Positions 1 to 53,972 of a stretch of DNA of 60,634 bases are shown in pieces. The notes beneath the pieces were generated by a model. It was not told the DNA's origin. It saw nothing but the letters and a program-made list of their open reading frames with translations, and ran no database searches. The DNA is from Eubacteriales bacterium. GTDB lineage: Bacteria; Bacillota; Clostridia; Oscillospirales; CAG-382. The DNA is taken from positions 1 through 60,634 of the forward strand of contig JAZSLS010000029.1 of the NCBI GenBank assembly GCA_045535465.1, in the 5' to 3' direction. Position 1 is the first letter of the stretch, and every line of letters starts with the position of its first letter. A program made the translations under genes and the position numbers.

Positions 1-265
1 TTCAGTTTTCTTTTGCAACATAGTTTTATCACGCCCCTTCATTTGTTTTGTTTTCAACTTGCCTAACACAAGCACTGTACCAAGTTGCTTGCGTTGCAGC
101 CTTTTCCTTTTGCCAACCATAAACTCCACCTTCCTGTTTTCAAGAATGCGGAGTTAATATAAAAAGCAAGGTTTCTTTTGGCAAGTAAAAAGGAATCATT
201 ACAGTTTTTCTTCCCAAAACAAAATTGATGAGACTGTTTCAGGTGCAATTTTATTATAAAGAGGA

Positions 266-292
266 ACGACTGGGAGGATGTCTCCCAGTCGT
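266..292 (-). terminator. Hairpin closing the minus-strand island operon
   Basis: Perfect 11-bp inverted repeat acgactgggag (266-276) / ctcccagtcgt (282-292) with a 5-nt loop, 12 nt beyond the stop of the last operon ORF (304). The trailing T-run on the minus strand is weak, so terminator function is inferred. Confidence 0.45.
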
Positions 293-303
293 CGATTTTG
301 CTG

Positions 304-582
304 TTACTTATAACTATTTAGTACTTTAATAAAACCATCATAATCTTTTTTTAGCATATCAATTGATAAAACTGCCGCTATAATCGAAAGCTTGTATTTT
401 TCAACAAGTAGCCCAACGCTAATATCACGATGTGCAAAACTATCTATATTTTCTCCTTTGAATAACTTTTCTAATATTTCAATACATTCTTCGGTCATAT
501 TGTTCAAGTCTATATTAGTTAGATTTGCTTCGTGTTCAGTGAAGCCATAATCAGAGATCAATATATTTGTATAATCTTTCAT
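304..582 (-). CDS. Small acidic cytoplasmic protein, candidate immunity partner of the adjacent HExxH effector
   Basis: 92-aa ORF with no signal peptide or TM. Its ATG overlaps the stop of ORF 582..1376 by 1 nt (TAATG on the minus strand). It is the last gene of the operon. Function is inferred from position only. Confidence 0.5.
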   Translation of the reverse strand: MKDYTNILISDYGFTEHEANLTNIDLNNMTEECIEILEKLFKGENIDSFAHRDISVGLLVEKYKLSIIAAVLSIDMLKKDYDGFIKVLNSYK

Positions 583-1376
583 TAAGAAACACCCCCATTT
601 TTAACAACTGTTTCCGCAAATGTTCTTGCATCAACCTCGATAGGTTGTGAAAAATACCGAGCAGGGTTTTGCTCATATCTAATGTAATTTGGGTGAAAAT
701 TATTTTTCCATTGCGATGCAGTATCACGATCCACACTATAAGCAGTAGGATTATTTGCAGCTGCATGTTGAAAAGCATGGCGTCCTTCGTGGAAAACAGT
801 ATCTATTGCATCAAGTCTATTCGCATTATCCGTCAAAACATCCGAATTAAGATACAAGTATCCATCTCCAGAATAATATCCTCGACTGTTTGGGTTGCCA
901 TCATAAAACCGAACACCACGCACTTCGAATCTAAATGCTTGGCCGGCTCGCAAAGCAAGAGTGTTTAATGCATCCTCGCGTTCGGTAATGTCCATTCTAT
1001 CCCAATTGCTTTCAGTGAAATATTGTGATAAATTTTGAAGACATTCAGAACATTTAACTGTTACGTCGCCATAAACATCGTTGTAAAATTCAATTTCACA
1101 TTCATCGCGGAACTGCTGTAATATAGAATTTGTTAGTTCGATATCGGTTATTCCTTTATCTTTTAAATCGTCCTTCTTTGCCTCAACACGCCTATCAATC
1201 GCATTTAACCCTGCTTGAATTAGTTCTTTTTTATCACGTTGTAATGCATAGGGCGTTTCTAGTGATGATGCATATGGCAACCCACTGGTTGTTGCGTTGT
1301 TGGTTATTTGGTTTGCAAAACTACTCGAAATAGTGTCGTTAAATTTTGACATATTCCCAGTGGCAGTTGACACCAT
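582..1376 (-). CDS. Zincin-like (HExxH) metallopeptidase-domain protein, candidate secreted effector/toxin
   Basis: 264 aa. The C-terminal half contains FHEGRHAFQH (HExxH) followed about 45 aa later by PIEVDAR, a possible third-ligand Glu. The N-terminal ~110 aa are helical/low-complexity. No Sec signal peptide. Confidence 0.6.
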   Translation of the reverse strand: MVSTATGNMSKFNDTISSSFANQITNNATTSGLPYASSLETPYALQRDKKELIQAGLNAIDRRVEAKKDDLKDKGITDIELTNSILQQFRDECEIEFYNDVYGDVTVKCSECLQNLSQYFTESNWDRMDITEREDALNTLALRAGQAFRFEVRGVRFYDGNPNSRGYYSGDGYLYLNSDVLTDNANRLDAIDTVFHEGRHAFQHAAANNPTAYSVDRDTASQWKNNFHPNYIRYEQNPARYFSQPIEVDARTFAETVVKNGGVS

Positions 1377-1393
1377 GCCTGCTACCGGGGATA

Positions 1394-1699
1394 TCAGTTT
1401 CCCGATGAAATTCCGTATTTTTTAGCAACGTAGGCGTCAATTTTTGTTGCAGTTTTTTCAAGCTCAGGAGGCAAATACTCAAGTGCTTCAGCAGCTTTCT
1501 TTTGTGCGGACTTAACATATTCCAATATATCCTTAAAATCCTCACTATGCGTGCCTAAACCTTCCATAATAGAGCTGTATGCTCTATCCATTTTTTCTGT
1601 TGCTTCGGCAATGTTTTCGATCGCAAATGGCATTGCTGCTGCAAATTGTCTTAATGCTTCGGCTCCTTCGGGAGTTAAAAACTTTTCTAAATTTGCCAT
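1394..1699 (-). CDS. Small all-helical protein (WXG100/Lap-like candidate, no WXG motif)
   Basis: 101 aa, predicted helix-loop-helix by composition (A/E/K rich, central GLGTH turn). Lies 17 nt upstream of the HExxH ORF and 12 nt downstream of the 86-aa ORF. The family call is inference. Confidence 0.5.
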   Translation of the reverse strand: MANLEKFLTPEGAEALRQFAAAMPFAIENIAEATEKMDRAYSSIMEGLGTHSEDFKDILEYVKSAQKKAAEALEYLPPELEKTATKIDAYVAKKYGISSGN

Positions 1700-1711
1700 T
1701 TTTCTTCTCCT

Positions 1712-1972
1712 TTAAATATCATCATAATCGTTAATTGCTTGTACTACAGCTTGTGTAGCATCTTCAGCAATTTGTGTAGCTTTGGTTAGCTCTTTTAAAG
1801 CTTCTTCCAAATTTCCGATGTGTCTTCTGGACAAGTCGTCGCTCCCCATAGTGGCATCGCAAACATTTGCAGCGTTTTTAAGAATAACAAAGTTTTCTTC
1901 TAACACCCCTTTGTATTCTTTAATTGCTTTTAATAATGCTTGTAAATCTTCGTATCGTGTAGCTCCTGCCAT
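1712..1972 (-). CDS. Small all-helical protein (WXG100-like size and position, no WXG motif)
   Basis: 86 aa, two helical halves separated by a TMGSDD turn. Lies 21 nt downstream of the FtsK-like ATPase. RBS-like aggagg is visible upstream on the minus strand (nt 1979-1984, reverse complement). Confidence 0.5.
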   Translation of the reverse strand: MAGATRYEDLQALLKAIKEYKGVLEENFVILKNAANVCDATMGSDDLSRRHIGNLEEALKELTKATQIAEDATQAVVQAINDYDDI

Positions 1973-1993
1973 GATTTTACCTCCTATAATAAT

Positions 1994-4900
1994 TTATTCT
2001 AAGTAATCCTCTTCTTCATCAACGATATTGATTGCATCTTGGCCCTGTACAGACCAACCATCAATGCACAAACCATTGTGCAAATATGGCCTGAATGAAA
2101 CTTCTTCTATCCCGTTTGTATAACGGAATATATGATTTGTTAGATTGGAAACCGCTTCAGCAAAGGAAGATGTAACAATTCCCACTGCTTCACTTTTAGC
2201 GGTTTGGAACATTATTCTATGCCTAAACAACGATTCATCCAATTTTGTTTGTCTGAAATCGCCACAAGTATCAAACTGCATTACGAAATGATATCCCCAT
2301 CTTGGCCCATGAGTGAGAATATATTTCAAATCATTTCGTGCGTCATATACTTTAGGATTGGCCAATGCATTTGCGGTGTTTGAAGAAATTTGAACGGTAA
2401 CACTTGACTTTACAGTAGTTACATTATCTGTTGACTGACCGCCATCTACATCGAGTTCCAAAGAGGCGAGGAATGTGTTTATATCCGCTTCGCCTTCATT
2501 GCGGCTTATCGAACCATATTCTTCATAAACACTCAAATCTTTTTTGCTATTAGACTGGTTCTCTTCGGCAAGATATTGCATATCCATCATAATGGTTTCA
2601 TAATTCATTATGAATATGGTTGTATTGGCTTCGACTTTGTCTTCAATAGCTTTCTTTAACTGAGATATTCGCGTACAGATATCTTCGATTCTTGAATACG
2701 ATTGATCAAAGGAAAAATCACATTCAGTTGTAATCTGTCGATAGATAGGGTTCTTAATAGAAGTCCAACACTCAGCTCGAACATCTTGCATTTTCAACGA
2801 ACGCACCGCACTCATAATTAAAGATGAACCCGACGTTTTTTCTCTTGTGGGAGCAACAAGCAAACAGTTTTCACAGAATCCATCAACCATTTCGATAGGA
2901 TAAAGCTTTAGCATTCTTTGCGGACTTCCTATAAACATGGTAATGTTTTTTTCGTAACTATTAGCGTTTGACTTGTTTAGATGCTCTAAAATGTCATCCG
3001 TTTGTTCCTCGAAAATTTCAAATGCATTACCATCTTTTATCATCGGACGTTTATGGATATAGGATTCAAAAACAGAAGCATCATAGGTCTTTTGTGGTGT
3101 GAACGTATGGTTAATAGATTCTATTAACGGAATTTGGCTATCTGAATTTGGTATGTACAAAACGTGAGCGTTACTTAATCGATCGCCTTGATCTGTGAGA
3201 GGAATTCTTTTGAGCGCGTAATGTACGGGCAGTTGTTCCATCAATAACTCGTCTCTCTCGCTGATGGTTTTTAAATCTAATGTGCTTTTTATGTCCGCAT
3301 AATCCGCTTTCATTGCGATTCTTTGTTGGATTTGATCCTTGGCCATTTCGGTCAAACCTCTTGTACCTTCGGTAAATCCTTGGCTAGAGAAGATGAATCG
3401 CATACCCAGTTTTGCACTTTTTGCTAAAATGGTTTGTAATTTAATCCTGTAATCTTCTTTTGCTAATGTAACTGAATGGGCTAATATATTTGACATTATC
3501 GAAAACTCATCAATAACAACAAATAATTCTGGCATGTATTTTTCTTCAGGAACATCACTCAATTTTTCCCATTTGCCCATAAATTTGTTTTGACGGGATA
3601 ACATTATTTCGGTAAGACGGTCCACCAAATCATAAACCAACTCGGGGGATTCGTCCAAAATAATATATCTTATATGGGGTATATTCTTGTTGACATATCG
3701 GCTAAATTCTGTTTTACCAAAATCCACAAGCCAAATTTCAACATTATCGGGATGAGTGGATTGTAAAATGCCTGTAATAATTGTGTGTATCAATGTTGAT
3801 TTACCGGAACGTGATGCACCGCAAATATAAGTGGCGAAATTTGAGTTTTCAAAGTCAAGATAAAGAATATTCCCATTGCTATCAAGACCATACGGAATAT
3901 TATCTAATTTTCTAATACCCTTTTTATGGCGTGTAGCTAACTCGAGACCAACTCTATTCAAGTAATTATTATTTAAATCGATAACAGATTTTTCGTTTAT
4001 ATATATCCGCTCAATATCGGCCGGCAAATTTGATGGTGCTAAATACCATGTAAATGCATGCGCTTTATCATTCTTGATAGAAAGATAAAAATCGTTATCG
4101 CTTTCAACGGTGATGTTAGTAGCGATATTTTTAATGAATTGATATATATCCGAATCAACTTGTCTATTTGCAGATTGATTATGTGTTAAAATTACAACGA
4201 TTCCATAATATTCTGCATTTGCACACAATTGTTGTATTAAATTGACTGAAGTTGAATCATATGCCTGGGGAAAATCGTGAAAGACAAAAACCTGCTTTTT
4301 GCCTTTGCTTTCACTTTTACTCACAGTGGCAACAATAGACTTGAGTTTTTTTCTAATTCCTTCTTCGGAATTAGGAACAGTATCTATTATTGAGTCATCT
4401 CCGCACAACTGGGACAAACAACCGAGCGAACTGGAATTAAATCGTATTGGGTCGATAAAAGCAATCTGAGTGAGATCTTGCCCGTAATGACGCAGATTGT
4501 TTAAAAGAATATTCTGTATTCCTTTTAACACATTTGCTTCTGACGAATTAGTATATTCAGCAAGTATAACCAATCCATCATTAACAATGATGTTTGCGGG
4601 TATTGATATTGTGGATTTTACAGCATTACACACTCCTTTGGTCTTATCAACAAATTTGGTTTCCATTCCTTTGGGAATTGGCAAAGGTAGTTCAACAGAT
4701 CCAATTGAAATGGTTCCGGTTTGTTCCGAGGATATGGACACTTTTTCCGTTTTCCCACCAAAAACATTTTGGTCGTTCAATACAAGATCTATAAATGACG
4801 AAAAGGATATGGAAAATAAATAGTTTTCTACTTCCGCCTTAGTGATCGAAATTTGGCTTTCGATAACGGAAGTCATCCTGTTGAATTCATTGGACAAATT

Positions 4901-5308
4901 CGCAATATGCATATCACTTGCTCTTGTTAACGAATCAACAGCAGATCTTAAATAAATAAGCTGCGCTGTTGCCTCAGCATACAGTTGAACAGCGTATGGA
5001 TCGTTAGATAAACCACTATTAATTTGAACAGAAAGGCGTGACAGGATACCGCTATCAAAAGGTTTTGCACTACTTGCATTCGTGTGAATTGAAGAATGTG
5101 TTCTAGCTATTTCAATAAAAGCATTGACTTTTGCTATGTGACGTTTGTTTTCTGCTAAATCATCTGCAAGTTTTTGCTTGGCATTAGCAATATCGTCAGA
5201 AAGTTTAGCCTTGTTTATTTCAACTTGTTGATATAGCGAAACGAGCCTTTGATTTAAAGTCTCAAGATCGGAATATATTTTATCGTATTTTTTTAACAAT
5301 GTGTCCAT
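1994..5308 (-). CDS. FtsK/SpoIIIE-family multi-domain ATPase (EssC/EccC-like) lacking recognisable TM or FHA regions
   Basis: 1104 aa. Intact Walker A CGASRSGKST (about nt 3800-3830) and Walker B-like ELFVVIDEFS. Flanked by two degenerate P-loop-like domains (QVFVFHDF..IVVILTHNQ upstream; LLVAPTREKTSGSS..TTIFIMNYE downstream). N-terminal ~150 aa are coiled coil. No hydrophobic stretch of TM length was seen. Confidence 0.8.
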   Translation of the reverse strand: MDTLLKKYDKIYSDLETLNQRLVSLYQQVEINKAKLSDDIANAKQKLADDLAENKRHIAKVNAFIEIARTHSSIHTNASSAKPFDSGILSRLSVQINSGLSNDPYAVQLYAEATAQLIYLRSAVDSLTRASDMHIANLSNEFNRMTSVIESQISITKAEVENYLFSISFSSFIDLVLNDQNVFGGKTEKVSISSEQTGTISIGSVELPLPIPKGMETKFVDKTKGVCNAVKSTISIPANIIVNDGLVILAEYTNSSEANVLKGIQNILLNNLRHYGQDLTQIAFIDPIRFNSSSLGCLSQLCGDDSIIDTVPNSEEGIRKKLKSIVATVSKSESKGKKQVFVFHDFPQAYDSTSVNLIQQLCANAEYYGIVVILTHNQSANRQVDSDIYQFIKNIATNITVESDNDFYLSIKNDKAHAFTWYLAPSNLPADIERIYINEKSVIDLNNNYLNRVGLELATRHKKGIRKLDNIPYGLDSNGNILYLDFENSNFATYICGASRSGKSTLIHTIITGILQSTHPDNVEIWLVDFGKTEFSRYVNKNIPHIRYIILDESPELVYDLVDRLTEIMLSRQNKFMGKWEKLSDVPEEKYMPELFVVIDEFSIMSNILAHSVTLAKEDYRIKLQTILAKSAKLGMRFIFSSQGFTEGTRGLTEMAKDQIQQRIAMKADYADIKSTLDLKTISERDELLMEQLPVHYALKRIPLTDQGDRLSNAHVLYIPNSDSQIPLIESINHTFTPQKTYDASVFESYIHKRPMIKDGNAFEIFEEQTDDILEHLNKSNANSYEKNITMFIGSPQRMLKLYPIEMVDGFCENCLLVAPTREKTSGSSLIMSAVRSLKMQDVRAECWTSIKNPIYRQITTECDFSFDQSYSRIEDICTRISQLKKAIEDKVEANTTIFIMNYETIMMDMQYLAEENQSNSKKDLSVYEEYGSISRNEGEADINTFLASLELDVDGGQSTDNVTTVKSSVTVQISSNTANALANPKVYDARNDLKYILTHGPRWGYHFVMQFDTCGDFRQTKLDESLFRHRIMFQTAKSEAVGIVTSSFAEAVSNLTNHIFRYTNGIEEVSFRPYLHNGLCIDGWSVQGQDAINIVDEEEDYLE

Positions 5309-5323
5309 AGCGATTCCTCTTTT

Positions 5324-6277
5324 TTATTCTACTGCCCATCCACGAGTTTCTTTATAATTACCATTAGTTGCAGTGTAAACTATAGTTGCGGATACATAAG
5401 TGTTGTAATAGTCATATTTTATATTGGTTACGATATTAGTACCGCTAGCATCTTGCGGGTATTTCATTGTGATGTTTAGCTGGATTGCAGATGCGATAGC
5501 ACGCGTCAAGGCTGTTTGCTCTAAAGGTGTTTCTAATTCATCGCAACGCTTGATTTCAAAATCATATGTTCCCAAATTGCATTCGATTTTATTTCGATAA
5601 ATTTTAAAAACAAAAGGTATATTGATTTGTTGGATATGGCTTCTTCTGTCAGCCGCATCGATGGTTTTTACAAATCCGTTGGTCATCCAATCAATAACTT
5701 CAACTGCCAAAGGACTTTCGGCAAATCGAACGCTCATTTTCTGCGCTTCGGCATTAAATCCGTTTAAATACGCCTGGTATTGTGCATCGGCTTCCGCTCT
5801 AACTTTTGCAATTGCTTTTTCACAATTCTCGTTTTCTGTGGCAATTTTATTTTCGGCATTTTGATTTGCAGAAGCGATTTGATTATCAATACTCTTATTA
5901 GAACCATTTTGTGCTGCAGCAATTAATCCACAAATGATCAATCCCAAAACAGCGCCAATAATACCGAACATAAACCAAAAAGCAAAAGCTGAACCGATTG
6001 AATCGCTAAAGTGAATCTGCGAGTCAATAGCATCTCCATTTGTGAAACAAACAAAAACACCGACAATTAATCCGACCACGCCACCGCCACCGGCAAAACT
6101 TAAATATTGCGGTTCTCCAGTGCTTTTGGACGAGTTTAGATTGCTTACAGTATTATTTTTAGATGTATTCAATCTGTGAATAGCATCGTTTTTTTGATTG
6201 GTGATTTGGCTAATTCTTTGATTTGTACTTCTTTCTAATTCTTCTTTATAAGTGTACGGAAACTGATTAAAGTTCAT
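5324..6277 (-). CDS. Membrane protein with two central TM helices and coiled-coil/beta-rich flanks
   Basis: 317 aa. Hydrophobic segments GGGGVVGLIVGVFVCF and FAFWFMFGIIGAVLGLIICGLIAAA. Q/N/A-rich helical stretch follows. Overlaps the upstream Lgt ORF by 11 nt. Confidence 0.6.
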   Translation of the reverse strand: MNFNQFPYTYKEELERSTNQRISQITNQKNDAIHRLNTSKNNTVSNLNSSKSTGEPQYLSFAGGGGVVGLIVGVFVCFTNGDAIDSQIHFSDSIGSAFAFWFMFGIIGAVLGLIICGLIAAAQNGSNKSIDNQIASANQNAENKIATENENCEKAIAKVRAEADAQYQAYLNGFNAEAQKMSVRFAESPLAVEVIDWMTNGFVKTIDAADRRSHIQQINIPFVFKIYRNKIECNLGTYDFEIKRCDELETPLEQTALTRAIASAIQLNITMKYPQDASGTNIVTNIKYDYYNTYVSATIVYTATNGNYKETRGWAVE

Positions 6278-7043
6278 TGATTGTATTCTCCTTTATGATC
6301 ATATAATTTTGTTTTTTATTTTGATTGGAATAAAGCAAAACAGTTATTCCAAAAAGCAATGTTAAAAGGCTGATGATTTGGGATGTTGACAAGTGTCCCC
6401 AGATACCACGAATATCATCACCACGTGCATACTCAATTACAAACCTATAACAAGAATATGTGATAAAATATATAGCTGTTCTTCGACCACGTATTTTCGT
6501 TTTATAAACAAATTGAAAGAATATAAATAACAAAATACAAAACAGAATCTCAATAAACCAAGTGGGAAACACTTCGACAAGCTCACCGTCAATTGGATAA
6601 CTAACGGCGAAAGGGCCATCATATTTGCATCCATAACAACAACCATTAAGATAACATCCAAATCTACCAATAGCATGTCCTAATGGAAGCAATGAAACAA
6701 ACACATCCGTATATTCTAAAAAGGGTTGTTTTTTTATTGCGCAAATTATTGCTAAGGACGCACACCCTCCAATAACACCACCGTAGAATACAGCCCCACC
6801 AAACAACAAATTGTACCAAAAGGGTTTATTAGAAACTGACATCATTGTAATAGCCGATAGCAATCTTACTCCAACTGCAGTTCCTATTAAAACGGGTACA
6901 ATCTTTTTCATTAAGTCTAAGAGGTACATTTTGGGGTACATCGGAGATTTAATATATACAGTAATAGTAGTAAAAAGTGCGATTAGGATTAGAAGTGAAA
7001 AAGTCGATATTTTCACACCTAGCAATTCAATGTAAGGAAACAT
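6267..7043 (-). CDS. lgt: Prolipoprotein diacylglyceryl transferase (Lgt) paralog
   Basis: 258 aa polytopic membrane protein with Lgt-family signatures FYGGVIGG and HAIGRFGCYLNGCCYG (Clostridial variant of the GRxGNFxN motif). Confidence 0.75.
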   Translation of the reverse strand: MFPYIELLGVKISTFSLLILIALFTTITVYIKSPMYPKMYLLDLMKKIVPVLIGTAVGVRLLSAITMMSVSNKPFWYNLLFGGAVFYGGVIGGCASLAIICAIKKQPFLEYTDVFVSLLPLGHAIGRFGCYLNGCCYGCKYDGPFAVSYPIDGELVEVFPTWFIEILFCILLFIFFQFVYKTKIRGRRTAIYFITYSCYRFVIEYARGDDIRGIWGHLSTSQIISLLTLLFGITVLLYSNQNKKQNYMIIKENTINEL

Positions 7044-7056
7044 TTATATTACCCAT

Positions 7057-7272
7057 TTAATTAGTGTTTTGTGATTTTACAAAGTCGGCAATGTCTCCAA
7101 TATTGCATTCAAGAACTTCAGCAATCCTTAAGAGAACGGAGATGGACACCTCTTGATTTTTCCTTAACTTAGTAAAAGTCGCGGGCGAAATTCCTGCACG
7201 TTTTCTAAGCTCTGCTTGAGTCAATTCTTTCTCTGCACATAAAACCCACATTTTCTTATAATTGATTTCCAT
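7057..7272 (-). CDS. XRE-family helix-turn-helix transcriptional regulator
   Basis: HTH core LTQAELRKRAGISPATFTKLRKNQEVSISVLLRIAEVL. I prefer the ATG at 7272 (MEINYKK..., RBS aggtgg 6 nt upstream) over the track start at 7290. Confidence 0.8.
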   Translation of the reverse strand: MEINYKKMWVLCAEKELTQAELRKRAGISPATFTKLRKNQEVSISVLLRIAEVLECNIGDIADFVKSQNTN

Positions 7273-7301
7273 GGTATACCACCTATGCATATATTTCTTT
7301 C

Positions 7302-7330
7302 ATTGTACCACAATTTTTTTGATTAAACAA
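7302..7330 (-). promoter_or_regulatory. Sigma-A-like promoter of the island operon
   Basis: On the minus strand: TTGTTT (7330-7325), 17-nt spacer, TACAAT (7307-7302), about 30 nt upstream of the XRE start. Confidence 0.4.
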
Positions 7331-7585
7331 CAGTTTTTTAAAAAAACGCATTATAAATTCGTACTTTCGCACGATTATTGTTGGTTCTTTTCATTTATAT
7401 GAAATATAATACATGAAAAGAGTATGGTAATTTTACTTGCTTTTTAGAGGTACGCCTGCAATATTGTAGGCGTACTTTTTATATAAACCAAGGAGGAATA
7501 GAAATGTTCGTAAAAGCAACGACAAAAGTAGTTGATTAAAAAGCATTCGGATCACAAGGCTGTGTGTGACCGAAGGAACGCAAAT

Positions 7586-8230
7586 ATGACTACAGCGGAA
7601 GTTGGTATGCCATCATTTGCAAACAGCCAACCGTCAGCGGTAGACGGCGTGAAAGATGTTCTTTGACCTATACCGCAAATGCTTCCGTACAGCACATAAG
7701 TACGGCAATGTTTCCGGGATTTACGTTGTAATAACAAATCTCTACCGAACGCCCGAGTTTTGCGGGGCGGCAGATTTATGATCTGCACTCGGTATGCGCA
7801 GCCGCTTGTCGGCACTCTGTTCTGCAGAGTCGGAGGTGCCGTGCGGCAAGGCATTTTGGGAGTATAAGAAACGAAAACCGGAGAAATGGCAGGTAAAGGC
7901 GCTGAAACTGCCAATGGGTGAGCTACGCCTTGCCGCGTTATGATGTGCTCTTTCAAATGATAAATGACCCTCTCACCGGATATGATAATATCCCATTGGA
8001 CATCCAAAAACTTCAAGCTAAAAAGCAAGCGCCCCTTTAACTTTGATTACGGAATGAGCGATGAGTGGACGGGATATGAAAAAGCCGACATAATGTTGTT
8101 TTATCCTGCACCGGTCGGTGCGTCTGTTTCTGAAAACGGAACAGAGAGAGAAATATGGAACGGTGATTTTACAGGAGAAGCCTTGTTTTATACCAAAAAA
8201 GGATTTTTAGAGTTGTTAACTAAACACTGA
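7586..8230 (+). pseudogene. Decayed coding region (protein-like segments in three frames), unknown family
   Basis: Protein-like translations are interrupted. Frame 2 runs MTTAEVGMPSF..VKDVL*. Frame 0 runs FDLYRKCFRTAHKYGNVSGIYVV..*..CGKAFWEYKKRKPEKWQVKALKLPMGELRLAAL*. Frame 1 runs YDVLFQMINDPLTGYDNIPLDIQKL. Frame 2 then gives the 88-aa ORF 7964..8230. At least 3 frameshifts and 1 in-frame stop are required. The region is GC-richer than the island on its left. Confidence 0.3.
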
Positions 8231-8317
8231 CCTTTACGCTTATTAAAACACTACAAATAAGCGTAAAAGTAAAGTGTTTTTTGAAAAATAGTATTATTTA
8301 CTTAATCGATGTAAGAG

Positions 8318-8356
8318 CCGCTGAGGATTAAATTTTCCTCGGCGGTTATCTTTGTT
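8318..8356 (+). terminator. Rho-independent terminator-like hairpin
   Basis: 10-bp stem ccgctgagga / tcctcggcgg (one G-U), 8-nt loop, followed by ttatctttgttt. Confidence 0.5.
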
Positions 8357-8492
8357 TATGCGTATCAATGGTTGACATTTACAGGGCGAAGGCGTCAGTT
8401 AGACCACCGAGACGGGCGGTGTTTTTTATTGACTTTTTTCTATAAAGAGCGATATAATTTTATTGCGTAAAAAATTAAATATTTTGGAAAAA

Positions 8493-13506: not shown

Positions 13507-13539
13507 ACATACAACAATTGAATGTGTTACACACAAAAT

Positions 13540-13822
13540 GCGTTGAGCAGAAACCAGTAGGTTGGAAAAAGGCTGGAGAGAGTTGCCGGTTGGTGCGAGG
13601 CAATGCGGACGTCCTTCACGAATTCATTCTGTTAGCAGTGCGCTGAATAAGAGCTTTCTCTTTAGTAGGATGCAACGGGTGTTCCCGTTATAGAACTAAG
13701 GTATGTCAGTACCTGAAAAGGTCACTATCGTGAGGTGGTGGCGAACTGAGGTGGTACCACGGGGTTATTGATTATCTCGTCCTCTGTATTCTCAATCGGA
13801 ATGCGGAGGGCGTTTTTGTTTT
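13540..13822 (+). promoter_or_regulatory. T-box riboswitch leader, specifier codon UUC (Phe)
   Basis: Stem I elements: AGTA, GGAGAGAGT (AG bay), GGTTGGTGCGAGG distal loop. Specifier loop ACGAA-TTC-A (TTC at 13623-13625), closed by cagaa/ttctg pairing. F-box CCCGTTA (about 13684-13690). T-box sequence AACTGAGGTGGTACCACGG (13743-13762). Terminator stem 13778-13786 / 13804-13812 followed by TTTTTGTTTT. Confidence 0.8.
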
Positions 13823-13892
13823 CCCTTTACACTCCGAAAAACTAATTTTAATTTATGCTTTTAGCAGGGGCTTAAAAGCAAAAAACGAAAGG

Positions 13893-15209
13893 GTGGTCAA
13901 AATGGCACAAAACTACTATCAACAAGAAATTGAAACTATGCCTCGTGAGGAAATGAAAAAGCTTCAATCCGAAAAGCTTGTTAAACAGGTTAAGCACGTT
14001 TACGATAACGTGGCATATTACCGTAACCTTATGGACGAGAAGGGCGTAAAGCCGGAGGATATACAGGGCATTGAAGACCTTCATAAGCTTCCTTTCCTTT
14101 CAAAGGCGGATTTAAGAGATGCTTACCCCTACGGGCTGCTGGGCAAGTCCCTTGACGATTGCGTTCGTATTCAGTCTACCTCCGGCACAACGGGTCGCCG
14201 TGTAGTTGCCTTTTACACACAGCACGATATTGACCTTTGGGAAGATTGCTGCGCTCGTGCAATAGTAGCTGCAGGCGGTTCAAAGCAGGACGTATGTCAG
14301 GTTGCGTACGGCTACGGCTTGTTCACAGGCGGTGCCGGGCTTAACGGCGGTTCTCATAAGGTTGGCTGCTTGACTCTTCCTATGTCATCGGGTAATACGG
14401 AAAGACAAATTCAGTTTATGATGGACCTTAACGCTACCATTCTTTGCTGCACTCCTTCCTATGCGGCATACATAGGCGAGAGCTTGAAGGAGCAGGGCTA
14501 CACTCCCGACAGGATTCCTTTAAAGGCGGGCATTTTCGGTGCAGAGCCTTGGACGGAGGAAATGCGCCGCGGTATTGAGGAGGCACTTGGTATTAAGGCC
14601 TACGATATTTACGGCCTTACTGAAACAACCGGTCCCGGCGTTGCCTTCGAATGCAGTGAGCAGACGGGTATGCATATAAACGAAGACCACTTCTATGCGG
14701 AGATTATCGACCCCGATACGGGTGAGGTTCTTCCCGAAGGAAGCAAGGGCGAGCTGGTGTTCACCTCTCTTGATAAAGAAGCTTTTCCGCTTCTTCGCTA
14801 TCGCACCCGTGATATTTGCGTTCTTTCCCGTGAAAAATGCTCTTGCGGGCGTACGCTGGTTAAGATGGCTAAGCCTATGGGCAGAACCGATGATATGCTT
14901 ATTATACGCGGTGTAAACGTATTCCCCAGCCAAATCGAAACCGTGCTTCTCAACGAGGGCTACCAGCCAAACTATCAGATTGTTGTTGACCGTGTTAAGA
15001 ATAACGACACCTTTGAGGTTAACGTGGAAATGTCCCCTGAGCAGTTTACCGATAAGCTTGCCGAAATTATAGGTATGGAAAAGGCGCTTGCAGGCGCAAT
15101 GAAAGCAATGCTTGGCATAAACCCTGCCGTTCATCTTGTTGCACCCAAGACCATTGCGAGAAGCGAGGGCAAGGCGGTTAGAGTTATTGACAAGAGAAAA
15201 CTTATATAA
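13893..15209 (+). CDS. paaK: Phenylacetate-CoA ligase family (PaaK-like adenylate-forming enzyme)
   Basis: 438 aa. N-terminus YYQQEIETMPREEMKKLQSEKLVKQVKHVYDNVAYYRNLM is typical of PaaK. AMP-binding motifs QSTSGTTGRR, YDIYGLTET and YRTRD. Confidence 0.85.
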   Translation: MVKMAQNYYQQEIETMPREEMKKLQSEKLVKQVKHVYDNVAYYRNLMDEKGVKPEDIQGIEDLHKLPFLSKADLRDAYPYGLLGKSLDDCVRIQSTSGTTGRRVVAFYTQHDIDLWEDCCARAIVAAGGSKQDVCQVAYGYGLFTGGAGLNGGSHKVGCLTLPMSSGNTERQIQFMMDLNATILCCTPSYAAYIGESLKEQGYTPDRIPLKAGIFGAEPWTEEMRRGIEEALGIKAYDIYGLTETTGPGVAFECSEQTGMHINEDHFYAEIIDPDTGEVLPEGSKGELVFTSLDKEAFPLLRYRTRDICVLSREKCSCGRTLVKMAKPMGRTDDMLIIRGVNVFPSQIETVLLNEGYQPNYQIVVDRVKNNDTFEVNVEMSPEQFTDKLAEIIGMEKALAGAMKAMLGINPAVHLVAPKTIARSEGKAVRVIDKRKLI

Positions 15210-33295: not shown

Positions 33296-35593
33296 GTGTA
33301 CGAAAACGAGATGTTTGCAGGCTGGGAAATTGTGGAGCTTTTAGGTAAAGACGGCTCGGAAGAAGTATATAAAATACGAAAAACCGATGCTTCGGGCAGG
33401 GAAGTATATTCTGCAATGAAGGTTATGGCCGTTCCTGCTTCCAAGGAAGAATATCGCATTTACGCTGAAGACGGTTATGACGCCGAAAGCATAGCCAACA
33501 TATTTAAAAATCAGGTCACTGATATTTTAAACCAATATAAGCCGCTTTACGATATGCGGGAATGCACCAACGTAGTAGGCTGTGAGGAGTATAAGGTTGT
33601 ATCCCAACCCGACGGTTATTCCTACCGTGTGTTTATACGTATGGAGCTGCTTAAGACGCTTCCTGATGCAAACAGGGAAAAGCCCCTTACGGAAAAGGAA
33701 ATTGTTAAGCTGGGTATTGATATATGCAACGCCCTTCTTTGTTGCGAAAAAGTAGGCGTTGTACATAGGGATATCAAGCCCCAAAAGATTTTTGTTGACG
33801 ACAACGGTAATTATAAGCTGGGCGGTTTCAGCACCGCCAAGACAATGGACGGTACCGTTAAGGCAACAAGAATGGGATACTCGGCGTATTCAGCGCCGGA
33901 GGTGTTTAATAGCGGCGTTTACAATTCTAACGTTGATATATATTCTGTGGGTATGGTGCTTTATTGGCTTCTTAACGAAAAAAGATTGCCTTTTCTACCC
34001 TTGCCTCCCGCTGTTCCCACCAACGGACAAATTTCAGAGGCTCAGGTTAAGAGGCTAAGAGGCGCACCTATGCCCGAACCTAAAAACGGCTCTTCCGCTT
34101 TAAAGGCGGCAGTGCTTAAGGCTTGCGCCTTTGACCCCACGGCAAGGTTTTATACAGTAGCGGCGTTTAAACAGTCGCTGGAGGCTGAGCTTGAGGGCTT
34201 TGCCGCAGTTGCCGCTCCCAAGCCCGATGCGGTGGAGAGCCTTCCCGGCGAAAACAATAAAACCGAAGAGCCTAAAAAGAAAAGCAAAAAGTGGCTTATA
34301 ATACTGATTATAGCTATTGCCGCTTCGTTTGTCCTTCTTGTTATTGCGGTTATTGCCATAATAGTTTTCTTCTTCCTTTTCAACAGAACCGTTGAGGACG
34401 TAATCCGTTTTGAGGACGAAAGCTCGGCATACGTCAGTACGGACGCAGGCTTTAACGACGACCGTGAAGAGTCTCGGTACAGCGTTGATGAGAATAGCTC
34501 CTATATTGATGAAAGCATCTATCTTCCCCCTGAGGAAAGCTATGATGAGCCTTTCGAGGAAAGCAGTTACCTGCCTCCCGAGGAAAGCTATGACGAGCCT
34601 TCAGAGGAGAGCTACGACGAGCCTTCCGAGGAAAGCTACGACGTAGAAGGCTACGTTCGTTATAACGGCGCCTGGGGTGACCTTGAGTGGGAGATTTATT
34701 CCGACGGCACACTTCTTATAAGCGGCGAAGGCAAAATGGACGACCTAAGCTGGTACGAGGACGTTGCGTGGGCGGTGCATAGAGATGAAATTACTCGGGT
34801 TATAGTAAAAGAGGGCGTTACCTCTATCAGCGCATACGCTTTCAGCCAGCACGAAAAGGTAACCTCCGTTAAATTGCCTTCAAGTGTTAAAACCTTGGGG
34901 CTTAACTCCTTTAGAGCTTGTACCTCCATAAAAGAGCTTAGTATACCAAAAGGGGTTAACTACATAGACGAGGACGCTTTTGCCTTTTGTACCGACCTTG
35001 AAACCATTAATATCCCCGTCGGTGTAGACGAGATAAGCAAATGGCTGTTTGGCTACTGCACCTCCCTTAAGACCATAAACTACGATGGCACTGTGGCACA
35101 GTGGAGAGCGCTTCCCAAGGGTCTTAACTGGTTTAAGGATACCACTGATTTTAAGGTGCAATGCAGGGATGGCGTCATAAACCACACCATAAGCACAAAC
35201 TATACTCTTGCCTACTCAGCCTACACCGTAACCCTTACGGATAACGGCAACGGCACTGCAACCATAACGGCAGCAGTACCCGCAGGCGTGGTTTCGGGTA
35301 AAATAGTTATAAACACCAGCAGTGACCTTAGCCTTGTATCTGGCAGTGTTAAGGGCTACGGCGCAGTGAACGAAAACTACAATTCAGACGGTGTAAGCGG
35401 CGCTTGCGTTTCCTTTGCATCTTCCTCTGCTTTACCTAACGGTGAGATAGTTTTCTCCGCTACTTATACCGTAAAGGACGGCGCAGTTCTTGACTTTTCG
35501 GACTTTAACGCTCCTATTTGGGATATATCAAAAAGCGGTAGTACCATAGGCACTCAAAACACAAGCGATGTATTAAAAAAGCTTGTGAAATAA
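33296..35593 (+). CDS. Transmembrane Ser/Thr-kinase-like protein (predicted pseudokinase) with extracellular LRR and cohesin-like domain
   Basis: GTG start with a taaggaggg RBS. Kinase subdomains: GKDGSEEVYK, AMKV, HRDIKPQK (33764-33787), KLGGFS in place of K..DFG (33815-33832), SAPE. TM WLIILIIAIAASFVLLVIAVIAIIVFFFLF. Acidic EESYDEP repeats. BspA-like LRRs. C-terminal ~140-aa beta-rich domain. Confidence 0.8.
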   Translation: MYENEMFAGWEIVELLGKDGSEEVYKIRKTDASGREVYSAMKVMAVPASKEEYRIYAEDGYDAESIANIFKNQVTDILNQYKPLYDMRECTNVVGCEEYKVVSQPDGYSYRVFIRMELLKTLPDANREKPLTEKEIVKLGIDICNALLCCEKVGVVHRDIKPQKIFVDDNGNYKLGGFSTAKTMDGTVKATRMGYSAYSAPEVFNSGVYNSNVDIYSVGMVLYWLLNEKRLPFLPLPPAVPTNGQISEAQVKRLRGAPMPEPKNGSSALKAAVLKACAFDPTARFYTVAAFKQSLEAELEGFAAVAAPKPDAVESLPGENNKTEEPKKKSKKWLIILIIAIAASFVLLVIAVIAIIVFFFLFNRTVEDVIRFEDESSAYVSTDAGFNDDREESRYSVDENSSYIDESIYLPPEESYDEPFEESSYLPPEESYDEPSEESYDEPSEESYDVEGYVRYNGAWGDLEWEIYSDGTLLISGEGKMDDLSWYEDVAWAVHRDEITRVIVKEGVTSISAYAFSQHEKVTSVKLPSSVKTLGLNSFRACTSIKELSIPKGVNYIDEDAFAFCTDLETINIPVGVDEISKWLFGYCTSLKTINYDGTVAQWRALPKGLNWFKDTTDFKVQCRDGVINHTISTNYTLAYSAYTVTLTDNGNGTATITAAVPAGVVSGKIVINTSSDLSLVSGSVKGYGAVNENYNSDGVSGACVSFASSSALPNGEIVFSATYTVKDGAVLDFSDFNAPIWDISKSGSTIGTQNTSDVLKKLVK

Positions 35594-46033: not shown

Positions 46034-49000
46034 ATGAAAAAGGACGTGCTGCGACAAGCGGCGAAGTACAGCAGAGCTAACAATCGAATAAAACGCTGGC
46101 ATCGTGTCGTGGCAGGTCTTGCGGCGGTGGTGGTATTTGTTACCACCTATGCTCTTATTCTACCGGCACTTACCAAGGAGAGGGAGCGCTTTTGCGGTTT
46201 GGAGGAGCATACCCATAAAGCGGAGTGCTACTTTACTCCCAAGGAGGAGCTTTGCTGTGAAGTAAAGACCCACTCACACGATGAAAAATGCAAAAACGAG
46301 GCAGGCGACCTTGTTTGCGGCTACTCAAATTACGTAATTCACAGTCACAACGATAGATGCTACGACGAAAAGGGGCTTCTTGCCTGCCGTTTGGCGGAGA
46401 TAGAGCTTCACGTTCACGACGAAAGCTGTGTCGAATGCAGCAAGGCTACGGAGCTTCACACTCACGGCGAGGGCTGTAAGGGTGAAAACGGCGCTGTAAT
46501 TTGCGGCAAGACGGAGCTTGAGGAGCATATCCACACGGACACCTGCTTTAAGACGGTGACCGACGCTGCGCCTGTTTTGATATGTACCCAAAAGGAGCAT
46601 AGCCACGACGAGGGCTGTTACGTGGATAAAACCAAGGACGTGGAGACGGCAGACGACTGGGAAAAGAGCATCCCCAAGGAGCTTGCAGGCGTATGGGGCG
46701 AGGATGTGGTAAGCGTGGCAAAAAGCCAGCTTGGCTACTTTGAAAGCTCCGTTAATACGGTAACCGACGCCAAGGGCGACGTTCGGGGCTATACCCGTTA
46801 CGGCGCTTGGTACGGCTCTCCCTACGGAGCGTGGGATGCTACCTTTGCTTCCTTCTGCTTGCATTACGCAGGGGTGGATAAAAACTACTTTGCCTTTGAA
46901 GCTGACAGCGCTAAGTGGATGAAGCATTTGGAGGCTTCGGGCTACTATCAAAAGGCGGCGGGCTATATACCTAAGGAAGGCGACCTTGTGTTCTTCCGCA
47001 ACGGTGTCGGTGATAAGGCGGTTTACAACGTGGCAATAGTTGCCGCCGTATCCGCAGATGATGCGGGAGCGCTTACGGGCATAAAGGCCATAGCGGGTGA
47101 CGTGGGAAACCGTGTTCAGTACCAAAGCTATGATATAAACGACGAGATGATACAGGGCTACGGCACTCTTGGTGTAGCCTATGGTGAATACAAAAACAGC
47201 ACTCCCAGAGAGCAGGTATACGAGGATGGTGAAGTAACCGTAAAAGCCCTTTACTATCCTGCGGCAGGTATACCCGAAGGGGCAGTGCTTACCGTAAAGC
47301 CTATAAGCAAGGAGCTTTTGGAATACGAAAGCTGCTATGATAAGGCAAAAACAAGGCTGGATGCTTTGGGTGGTCAGGTAAAGACCACCGATATTAAGGA
47401 CTTTAGGCTTTACGATATAGGCTTTGTGCTTAACGGCAAGGAAATACAGCCTATTGAAAAGGTTGATATAAGCATAAGCTATCCCAACGAAGGGGTAGAT
47501 GAGGAGGAAACCGTAACGGTCTTCCACTACGTGGACGACAAGGCGGAAATTTTGGGGGCACAGGAATACAGCCTTGAGGATGGGGTGCTGACCACGGATT
47601 TTGAGACGGAAAGCTTTTCTTTATTCGCAATAGTTACCTCCGAAAGCCAAGTTAACAGTATTGTAACCCTTAACCAACACAGCGTGACTTCCAACACCAA
47701 CCTGAGACAGCTTGGGGACATAACCTTTGCCATAGTCAACGGCGACTACGCTATGACAGCAAAGGAGGACGGCACCCTTGCGGTAGAGCAGATAAGGGCA
47801 CGGGAAAACGGCGTAATTACGGCAAACGAAAAGCTTTGCCGTTGGCTGCTTACCAAGTACAGCACAAGTTACTATAACTATGAGTATTACATAAGCACTA
47901 CCATAAACGGTACTACCTATTATCTTATGCTGTCGGGCACCACCCTTCAGCTGACTACGGCTCAAGCTTCCCGTACACGCTTTACCTTTGCTCAGTCAAG
48001 CGGCCCCGTAACGATAAGGAACGGCAACAGTAGCTATATAAGAGTAGCCGAAAGCGGTGTAAGCGTAGGCAGCTCTATGCAGCTTGGTCTGTACAGGGTG
48101 CCTACGGGTGAGTTTACGGTTAATTTTGACGGTCAGATAGGTCTGCCTAAATACAATGGCAGTAATAACCACAAATACCGTCTGGCGGAAAACATAGCGG
48201 TTACCACCACGGGTGGCGGCTACGTTACCTTACCTGCCACTATGACCCTTCCGGGCAACTATCCTATGAAGCTTAACGGCTGGTACGACATTATAAATAT
48301 GGTCTACTACGACAGCTCTATGCTGGGTAAGCGGATAAGGGTTACCAACAACACCATCTTCTATCCCGAATGGATAGCCGAAACCTACGATATAGGTCAG
48401 GACGTGGACGTGGTTGAAAATCAACCCGACACCAGCGACTTTATCACCACCACGGTATTTGATTATAACGAGCTGTTTAACACCCACTCGGCAAACTATT
48501 CTCCCACAGACGGCACTTGGACCTTTGACCCTAACAGTGAGCTGGGCTTTATCTTCTTTGACTACTTTGACTCCCCTGCGGGTAACATAGGTGATATGTC
48601 AAACAAGGGCGTGGCTGTAAACGGCGTAACCGTAAATCAGGAAAAAACGGCGGGTACAAGAGGTGCAAGTACCAACTTCCCCGGTACCATAACGCCTAAC
48701 ATAGCCAACGAAAAAAGGCTTAACGCTTTGTTTGGTGATGACCCGATAGCGGGTCGAATTTCCTTGGGTGAAGGGGACTGGCTATACAGCTTTGACCCGG
48801 AGATAGGCTTTTATTACTACAACAGCGCAAAAAACGCTGCCTCCTACAACCAAAGCCAACAGCGTTTTTACGTTTACGACTACACCGTAAACATCGACAG
48901 CCAAAACAGCTTGAACGACTTTTTGCCCTTTAACTACGGAAAAACCACCTACAAGGAGAAGGACAACGAGGCAAACTACTGGTTTGGTATGAAAAGTGAG

Positions 49001-53699: not shown

Positions 53700-53875
53700 T
53701 TTCCGTAGGACGTTTACAGGAGATTACCGCAAGGTAGCCGAAGGAGCAAAACTCTCAGGTCGTTAGTTGTAGCGAGGACTGTAAGCTGACGGAGCTTTGG
53801 AGAAACCCATCAAATTGGGTGCCGAAGGTGCAAACGCATACTCTGCGTAATCTCTCAGGCAAAAGGACAAAGTTT
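53700..53875 (+). promoter_or_regulatory. Tandem glycine riboswitch
   Basis: Aptamer 1: CAGGAGA..GCCGAAGGAGCAA..CTCTCAGGT..GAGGAC. Aptamer 2: TTGGAGAA..GTGCCGAAGGTGCAA..TCTCTCAGGCAAAAGGAC. Lies upstream of an alanine/glycine:cation symporter gene, the classic context. Confidence 0.8.
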
Positions 53876-53916
53876 ACTTTCTTTTCTTTTGGGAAAGGAC
53901 TGTATTTTTGTGTTTT

Positions 53917-53959
53917 TACGGCGGAGTGCGTTTGTTGCACTACCGCCGTATTATATTTT
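53917..53959 (+). terminator. Expression-platform terminator of the glycine riboswitch
   Basis: tacggcggagtgc-gtttgtt-gcactaccgccgta (one bulge), followed by ttatatttt. Confidence 0.65.
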
Positions 53960-53972
53960 AAGGAGATAATAA

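Follow-up and report, generated by a model that had tools for sequence, protein, structure and literature searches.

Gene content and boundaries of the cassette

The DNA under study, referred to here as the window, is one whole contig of 60,634 bases (JAZSLS010000029.1) from a Eubacteriales bacterium, and near its start lies a compact gene cassette that recalls type VII secretion system (T7SS) loci. Eight tightly packed open reading frames (ORFs), all on the minus strand, span positions 304 to 7290. An earlier note on this DNA had described a hairpin-bounded unit of eight genes with spacings of -11 to +21 nt; the ORFs were all found at the sizes given there, as were the gaps (+13, -11, +15, +21, +12, +17 and -1 nt, from the first gene to the last) and the hairpin. 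The first gene (7057-7290) encodes an Xre/Cro-type helix-turn-helix (HTH) regulator of 77 aa (Pfam HTH_26, E 4.9e-19), an 87%-identical copy of which stands at the equivalent position in a related locus, L009; the regulators of other loci differ from it. It is followed by a 258-aa paralog of Lgt, the prolipoprotein diacylglyceryl transferase (6267-7043; Pfam LGT, PF01790, E 3.8e-38), a 317-aa protein with two transmembrane (TM) segments, here called the 2-TM protein (5324-6277), an ATPase of 1104 aa (1994-5308), two small helical proteins of 86 aa (1712-1972) and 101 aa (1394-1699), a 264-aa candidate toxin with an HExxH motif (582-1376) and a 92-aa ORF (304-582), the start of which overlaps the toxin stop by 1 nt.

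Upstream of the regulator, the minus-strand sequence at 7302-7330 (TTGTTT, N17, TGgTACAAT) can plausibly be read as a sigma-A promoter with an extended -10 element. This candidate, already proposed in the earlier note, was not listed by a consensus scan, because its -35 hexamer matches at 3 of 6 positions and left it below the threshold. The unit is closed by a terminator-like hairpin at 265-293, which has a 12-bp stem with 7 GC and scores on both strands. The G+C content is 0.36-0.37 over positions 1-8000, as against 0.42-0.50 in the rest of the contig, and this step suggests an acquired island. A spacer that is richer in G+C (7380-8420) coincides with the step, separates the cassette from the next gene and is probably the island border. 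It holds just an 88-aa ORF and an unsupported 158-aa ORF with a TTG start, and comparison of the spacer with Rfam and by BLAST, including against plasmids, gave nothing significant.

The ATPase and its proposed membrane partner

The ATPase consists of a coiled coil (residues 1-183), a degenerate alpha/beta domain (199-440), an active P-loop domain (about 470-700), two further degenerate domains (760-915 and 990-1095) and an acidic tail. Intact Walker A (GASRSGKST) and Walker B (VVIDEFS) motifs, as read in the earlier note, are found in one domain only, and the Pfam FtsK_SpoIIIE model covers residues 472-627 alone (E 3e-16). EccCb, EccCa and EssC were the sole NCBIfam families matched, with EccCb at the top. 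When a profile of the ATPase family was compared with the sequences of the PDB, the best match was EccC of T. curvata (4nh0, E 3.8e-18), aligned on its first ATPase domain. An AlphaFold2 model, built from a 13-sequence alignment (mean predicted local distance difference test score, pLDDT, of 71), contained helices over residues 2-183 followed by four alpha/beta domains, the P-loop domain being modelled at low confidence. With this model as the query for Foldseek against the PDB, the top eight matches were EccC/EssC chains (E 3e-19 to 5e-11), ahead of KaiC, and the best alignment extended over 1045 columns. As modelled, the layout is that of EccC, DUF-D1-D2-D3, with Walker A and B retained by D1 only. 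The two degenerate P-loop-like domains that had been described as flanking the active one are actually three, one before and two after it, as in EccC. D1 is also the best-conserved region of the ATPase, with 58-93% identity compared with 27-77% elsewhere.

No 19-residue window of the ATPase reached a Kyte-Doolittle value of 1.6 (maximum 1.44). An N-terminal hydrophobic segment was likewise absent from 59 full-length ATPase ORFs of the related loci and the window and from 53 database homologues, and the marginal hydrophobic windows seen in the family were confined to the alpha/beta domains; the motor is therefore soluble. The Pfam search gave no FHA match, and the N-terminus is helical or coiled coil in the AlphaFold2 model. 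The proposal of an EssC-like ATPase that lacks TM segments and begins with a coiled coil in place of an FHA domain was thus borne out by the hydropathy values together with the PDB sequence and fold matches. Like the cassette ATPase, EccC and EssC (4nh0 and 4n1a; Geobacillus EssC, 5fv0 and 4lya) consist of tandem FtsK-like alpha/beta domains of which the active one is ATPase 1 (D1), and they are likewise encoded immediately 5' of helical proteins of about 100 aa and of toxins. In contrast, they carry two N-terminal TM helices, with an FHA domain in addition in EssC, where the cassette ATPase has a coiled coil of about 180 aa, and they are 1300-1500 aa long compared with about 1100 aa for the cassette protein, which keeps Walker motifs in a single domain.

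Several other features of the family were recorded. A conserved acidic tail follows the last alpha/beta domain, with the consensus EEEEYLL (DEEEDYLE in the window). Two loci (L065:4397-8977 and L066:4925-9514) encode ATPase homologues of 1526-1529 aa with an additional N-terminal coiled coil and alpha/beta region; these are likewise without a TM segment, and a set of three small-protein genes lies downstream of them. A recombination junction within the ATPase gene, of the kind known from essC variants, was looked for and not seen, the ATPase of L009 being about 50% identical to that of the window throughout.

The FtsK_SpoIIIE match, together with relaxase and primase genes near some of the related loci, would also fit a conjugative or chromosome-partitioning DNA translocase of the FtsK, TraB or TcpA type that serves the island, with the small neighbouring genes as unrelated cargo; the earlier note had named such an identity as fatal to its own proposal. 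However, FtsK was reached by the family profile at E 0.005, compared with E 4e-18 for EccC. Furthermore, FtsK/SpoIIIE and TcpA/TraB translocases are anchored in the membrane by N-terminal TM segments, have only one motor domain and either carry a DNA-recognition (gamma) domain or are linked to conjugation genes, whereas the cassette ATPase has no TM anchor, combines one active with three degenerate domains in an EccC-like architecture and is linked to small helical proteins and toxins. Relaxases are absent from the window and from loci L004 and L006, and no full-length relative of the ATPase was found in 72,556 PLSDB plasmids, 50,697 INPHARED phages or IMG/VR. A DNA translocase is therefore considered highly improbable, and the ATPase is treated below as a secretion-type motor of the EccC/EssC kind.

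The 2-TM protein is proposed to be the membrane partner of this motor. A tail of about 60 residues precedes a TM hairpin (hydrophobic segments 58-85 and 93-125) with an acidic loop of about 15 residues, followed by a coiled coil and a conserved C-terminal domain of about 125 residues, which is marked by the motifs DAADRRSH, YPxDxSG and YTAxNGNY and by the invariant residues R211, D276, G279, A303 and N305. To judge by the acidic loop, both termini may lie in the cytoplasm, in which case the coiled coil and the C-terminal domain could reach the coiled coil of the ATPase. Two or three tandem 2-TM paralogs (284 and 317 aa, about 46% identical) were observed in L007 (7353-9182), L009 (4432-6260), L011 and L040.

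In addition to its match to PF01790, the Lgt paralog, when aligned to E. coli Lgt (5azb), keeps R143, G154, Y235, R239 and E243 (E. coli numbering) and carries the changes H103Y, N146C and E151C. The possibility that these changes are cassette-specific marks of a catalytically dead enzyme was ruled out, as they are shared with 110 of 118 Lgt relatives, which have the motif GRxGCxxxGCCxG in common and include an Lgt encoded directly after lspA in locus L032. Since the substitutions are shared with housekeeping Lgt, the paralog is, as far as its sequence indicates, probably an active enzyme. It belongs to the same 7-TM fold family and has the same motif set as the housekeeping GCxxxGCCxG Lgt of the lspA-lgt type (L032); that enzyme adjoins lspA, however, whereas the cassette Lgt lies inside a secretion-like operon on a mobile island. 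The cassette copies form a separate clade, with at least 41% identity inside it and at most 38% to others. In 23 of 26 2-TM proteins from loci with Lgt, the first TM segment (TM1) has a Cys at its outer end, compared with 8 of 25 from loci without a detectable Lgt, these being raw counts without phylogenetic correction and partly from truncated contigs. The context of this Cys is often lipobox-like (FFAC, FIAC or LIAC; VFVC in the window), and the cassette Lgt may lipid-modify the TM1 Cys of the neighbouring 2-TM protein.

Small helical proteins and polymorphic cargo

Directly downstream of the ATPase gene lies that of the 86-aa protein, whose family has this position conserved and is characterised by a central AANVCxxxMGxD motif; the protein is a candidate co-secreted partner or adaptor. 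In the 101-aa family that follows, an LGxH motif at mid-length contains an invariant Gly, and a TADKIxxY motif lies near the C-terminus. The two families proved weakly related when their profiles were compared in hhalign (43%, E 2.5e-4), and the comparison paired their central Gly residues. Both had been described in the earlier note as all-helical proteins of WXG100 or Lap size without a WXG motif; the motif is indeed absent from both families, but a conserved central Gly (LGxH or MGxD) takes its place, which that description had missed. Weak Pfam matches were obtained to EspC (5 of 31) and WXG100 (1 of 31) in the 101-aa family and to WXG100 (2 of 20) in the 86-aa family. When the AlphaFold2 model of the 101-aa protein was compared with the whole PDB, the best 12 matches were all EsxB of B. 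anthracis (TM-score 0.56-0.67, root-mean-square deviation about 3 Å, 18-20% identity), with CFP-10/ESAT-6 ranked 14th and a TelA-LXG/Lap complex 42nd. WXG100 proteins (EsxA and EsxB; B. anthracis EsxB, 4j11) share size, helicity, a mid-length Gly and a position 3' of the ATPase gene with the small proteins. They differ from them in forming a hairpin with WXG, where the cassette protein is modelled as a single helix without WXG, and the sequence kinship is marginal. The small proteins may belong with the WXG100 proteins, and they are likely to be functional counterparts of them.

The main new result is that the 101-aa family also occurs as part of larger proteins. In related loci, the first ~95 residues of proteins of 276-334 aa are a 101-aa domain, and the C-termini fused to it comprise an ADP-ribosyltransferase (PF03496, E 5e-24), Colicin-DNase/WHH nucleases and an HExxH domain. 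A word-index search with the 101-aa profile yielded small proteins only; the wider set of toxin fusions emerged from an exhaustive hidden Markov model (HMM) search of 1.84 billion representative proteins, in which 473 clusters contained the domain (E <= 1e-3, clusters at 50% identity). About 42 of the best 150 matches were long proteins (160-620 aa) that carry the domain at residues 1-97, and their C-termini included ADPrib_exo_Tox (7), Endonuclea_NS_2 (2), Gln_amidase (2) and LHH (2), as well as Ntox15, Colicin-DNase/WHH and ART (one each). The N-terminus shared by these 42 long proteins was covered by no Pfam family, and neither they nor the cargo and small proteins of the cassettes matched LXG, DUF3130 or DUF3958.

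The joining of one domain to many different toxin C-termini is the signature of a polymorphic-toxin trafficking domain. A polymorphic toxin system is understood here in the sense of Zhang et al. 2012 (PMC3482391), that is, a conserved N-terminal trafficking domain, diverse C-terminal toxin domains and immunity genes. At the related loci, an N-terminal domain is combined with diverse toxin C-termini, and small candidate immunity ORFs follow the toxins, often in arrays of two. The 101-aa domain, to judge by analogy, behaves like a targeting domain of the LXG/WXG type, and the 101-aa protein of the window would be a free-standing copy of it. The arrangement resembles that of T7SSb LXG loci with Lap1 and Lap2 (DUF3130/DUF3958; Klein et al. 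2024, PMC10801868) in its order of two helical partners, a toxin with a helical N-terminal targeting domain, and immunity; interchangeable C-terminal toxin domains are also common to both. The LXG targeting domain, however, is about 200 aa long and bears LXG, whereas that of the cassette is about 95 aa long and bears LGxH. Furthermore, unlike in LXG systems, the cassette domain is also found free-standing, and some of the cargo, including that of the window, is without it. Unfused cargo in related loci comprises a glutamine deamidase (Gln_amidase, PF15644), a WHH nuclease, a C39-like peptidase and a protein kinase. The earlier note had recognised a helper-helper-toxin-immunity order in the last four genes. 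The gene after the small proteins did prove to be a hypervariable toxin slot, but the 101-aa protein is better described as a toxin N-terminal domain standing alone than as a mere helper.

In the window, the slot is occupied by the 264-aa protein, which has a disordered N-terminal region with a GNMSKFNDTI motif and a C-terminal zincin-like domain with the HExxH motif HEGRH. Over the first 25 residues (MVSTATGNMSKFNDTI...) it shares 64% identity with the cargo of L006, from which it otherwise differs, and in its HEGRH domain it shares 34% with the cargo of a distant cassette, L001; these separate N- and C-terminal kinships are, at the level of sequence, those of modular shuffling. The sole family match was weak, to the DUF6782 metallopeptidase (E 0.0015), and no relatives of the protein were found in the PDB or in JGI metagenomes. 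The 92-aa ORF matched no family and had no homologue at the other loci; its position and the gene order of polymorphic toxins suggest that it encodes an immunity protein. At two loci (L010:14644-16322 and L014:14580-16243), a second free-standing copy of the 101-aa family precedes a 437-aa protein with a Pkinase domain (E 1e-13), possibly another effector of this system, of the kinase type.

Defence systems, too, typically have variable effector modules. On a rival reading, the cassette acts within the producer, as an intracellular conflict system of the anti-phage abortive infection or toxin-antitoxin-like kind in which invading DNA would be sensed or translocated by the ATPase and the variable toxin set free or activated. 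In its P-loop domain, the ATPase is similar to mad8 (E 2e-13) and SspH (E 4e-8), two ATPases of defence systems, and Fic, SocA_Panacea and MmeI-type restriction-modification genes adjoin the cassette on its mobile islands. However, PADLOC 2.0 matched no defined defence system, and its domain-level matches (mad8, SspH and LeoBC only) were limited to the generic FtsK domain, with the fold of the whole protein closest to EccC/EssC. ADPrib_exo_Tox, Ntox15, LHH, WHH, Colicin-DNase and Gln_amidase are, moreover, domains catalogued for secreted polymorphic toxins, and the effectors are joined to a dedicated helical domain of about 95 aa and followed by small candidate immunity ORFs. A conflict system is thus regarded as quite unlikely, and the export of toxins as the better account of this cargo.

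Distribution, proposed mechanism and genomic setting

Homologues of the ATPase formed 53 clusters of about 1100 aa with 38-100% identity, none of which bore a functional name. A scan of one genome per species gave 24 loci, all in metagenome-assembled genomes of gut or rumen bacteria, the hosts being Bacillota (Faecalimonas, Ruminococcus, Blautia, Lachnospiraceae, Oscillospiraceae, Christensenellaceae, Anaerovoracaceae and one Streptococcus) and Eggerthellaceae (Actinomycetota); a scan of metagenomes added 51 further loci. Locus counts are approximate, as the same element may have been sampled twice. Among named genomes, the closest cassettes were those of a Faecalimonas genome (ATPase identity 78%) and a Ruminococcus genome (71%), both metagenome-assembled. 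With profile HMMs built for each cassette family, both small-protein genes were found in 55 of the 60 loci that had 1.5 kb or more of downstream flank, and, among the 34 loci with both flanks, the 2-TM protein was found in 26, usually just upstream of the ATPase but downstream in some clades, and the Lgt paralog in 15. The universal core therefore comprises the 2-TM protein, the ATPase and the 86-aa and 101-aa families, with Lgt being clade-specific; the membrane partners named in the earlier note, the 2-TM protein and Lgt, are both present in the window, but the latter falls outside this core. Recurrence in dozens of independent loci indicates that the arrangement is more than chance. In the most distant clade (L023-L027), the large proteins had no Pfam match, although neighbouring ClpB-like genes and a recombinase were matched.

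The flanks of the cassette at other loci contain tyrosine integrases, Mob_Pre or MOB relaxases, primase and transposases, and also Fic/SocA and an MmeI-type restriction-modification gene. The integrases, relaxases, primase and transposases identify the cassette as cargo of small mobile islands. Comparison of the window with L009 gave identities of 87% for the HTH regulator, 69% for Lgt and 78% for the 2-TM protein, but only 51% for the ATPase, 49% for the 86-aa protein and 54% for the 101-aa protein; the two halves of the cassette therefore recombine at the border between the 2-TM and ATPase genes.

None of the eight cassette proteins matched EssB/YukC, EsaA/YueB, EssA or EsaB/YukD, the T7SSb core, in Pfam or NCBIfam, in agreement with the earlier note. 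T7SS core genes were also not found within 10 kb in those loci whose called genes carry Pfam annotation, nor did any T7SS-like gene appear when the 19 largest of the other ORFs in the window were examined. ESX systems are known to contain EccC in split form, with soluble halves (EccCb). With this precedent, an ATPase that is devoid of TM segments and has EccCb as its top NCBIfam match, on a single contig with the remaining genome unseen, could belong to a satellite island of effectors and accessory ATPase that feeds a canonical membrane T7SS (T7SSb or other) encoded elsewhere in the genome. This is judged unlikely. The cassette comes with a conserved 2-TM protein and with a separate targeting-domain family, which lies outside the LXG and WXG100 Pfam models, and it is moved by integrative or mobilisable islands between families and into Actinomycetota; the negative results for T7SS core genes near the loci and among the largest ORFs of the window point the same way. 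The earlier note had left the choice between a satellite and a distinct module undecided, and the 2-TM protein, the targeting domain, the mobility and the lack of a matching published subtype all favour the latter.

As to published subtypes, T7SSc to T7SSj were defined from RefSeq by Garrett, Higginson and Palmer 2024 (PMC11217815); the ATPase (TsxC) is membrane-bound in every subtype, a YukD-like TsxB is present in most, and some, such as T7SSg, are minimal. Like the cassette, T7SSc-j are alternative gene sets around an EssC-like ATPase, in their case with WXG100-like proteins, and they occur in Bacillota and Actinomycetota, but the descriptions in that paper include neither Lgt nor a protein like the 2-TM partner. 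Full-text literature searches, with subscription-only papers outside their scope, gave no description of an Lgt-linked or TM-less T7SS-like system.

The analysis shows that the ATPase is related to EccC/EssC and lacks TM segments, that a core of four genes is conserved in a mobile setting, and that the 101-aa domain is fused to many toxin domains. Taken together, the cassette is probably a self-contained, mobile and undescribed T7SS-like exporter of polymorphic toxins, presumably aimed at rival bacteria, in which an EccC-like motor that is soluble works with a 2-TM partner and a helical targeting domain of a new kind. A more specific version is advanced tentatively, as possible rather than probable: that it represents an autonomous, undescribed T7SS subtype on small mobile islands of uncultured gut Clostridia and Eggerthellaceae, in which the 2-TM protein recruits the soluble motor to the membrane and, in one clade, is S-diacylglyceryl-modified at its TM1 Cys by a dedicated Lgt, and the LGxH domain selects substrates whether fused or in trans.

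Several observations weigh against toxin export by such a system. The evidence is wholly computational, so that secretion is a prediction, and the window represents just one contig from a metagenome-assembled genome, elsewhere in which a canonical T7SS could lie. The ATPase scored 56.7, 58.7 and 49.4 bits against curated cut-offs of 509, 347 and 778 (TIGR03924, TIGR03925 and TIGR03928, respectively). The 2-TM protein has no Pfam or PDB relatives, including no match to a T7SSb membrane family, and the cassette is without a recognisable channel-forming component. As for the small proteins, comparison with S. aureus EsxA in hhalign gave probabilities of 11% and 0.4% (with an EsxA sequence entered by hand), the PDB profile matches were generic coiled coils, the AlphaFold2 model of the 101-aa protein (pLDDT 87.6) is one helix over residues 10-95 with no hairpin, and the E-values of its fold matches to EsxB were only 0.15-0.5. 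Finally, it is their position and the HExxH motif that mark the last two genes as a putative toxin and immunity pair.

If the cassette does export its cargo, the process may be envisaged as follows. The four-domain ATPase would oligomerise, its N-terminal coiled coil docking on those parts of the 2-TM protein that would face the cytoplasm, the coiled coil and the C-terminal domain. The 2-TM protein would supply the membrane anchor and perhaps the channel, whereas EccC and EssC use their own TM helices. As the analogy of EsxA/B and LXG-Lap suggests, a helical complex would be formed by the two small proteins and the toxin, and the toxin would bring its own 101-like domain or, as in the window, a short conserved N-terminus that relies on the free-standing 101-aa protein. 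The same analogy suggests that the degenerate C-terminal ATPase domains would recognise this toxin complex, after which ATP hydrolysis at the single intact P-loop domain would power export. In the window, the gene order suggests that the cargo would be the HExxH zincin-like protein, with the overlapping 92-aa gene providing self-protection. More speculatively, the co-transcribed Lgt paralog would probably lipid-modify the TM1 Cys of the 2-TM protein in this clade.

Among the known routes for the delivery of antibacterial toxins by Gram-positive bacteria, type VII secretion is the main one, and we know of no delivery route for many of the toxins of the dominant uncultured gut Clostridia (Lachnospiraceae, Ruminococcus and Oscillospiraceae). 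Export by the cassette would add a compact mobile weapon system to the ecology of the gut microbiome, and its searchable new toxin-targeting domain would flag hundreds of unannotated toxins (473 clusters). It would also provide a natural split T7SS motor, with anchoring and ATPase on separate polypeptides, which would help to dissect the coupling of hydrolysis to transport in EccC/EssC. The link to Lgt, if real, would tie the assembly of a secretion machine to lipoprotein modification, which would be unprecedented for T7SS.

Other features of the window were noted beyond the cassette. At 13534-15209, a T-box leader (104.5 bits) precedes the gene of a PaaK-like ligase (AMP-binding and AMP-binding_C_2), rather than that of an aminoacyl-tRNA synthetase or transporter. 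At 53787-55496, a glycine riboswitch aptamer lies directly 5' of a sodium:alanine symporter gene, a known pairing. Many dockerin proteins are encoded in the rest of the contig; dockerin type I proteins, BspA-type leucine-rich repeat (LRR) proteins and a Ser/Thr kinase-LRR_5 fusion (33296-35593) form a cluster at 21335-42337, and a 1683-aa Cna_B/SpaA surface protein is encoded at 46034-51085. The dockerin/LRR cluster and the Cna_B/SpaA protein together point to a cellulosome-producing, Ruminococcus-like host.

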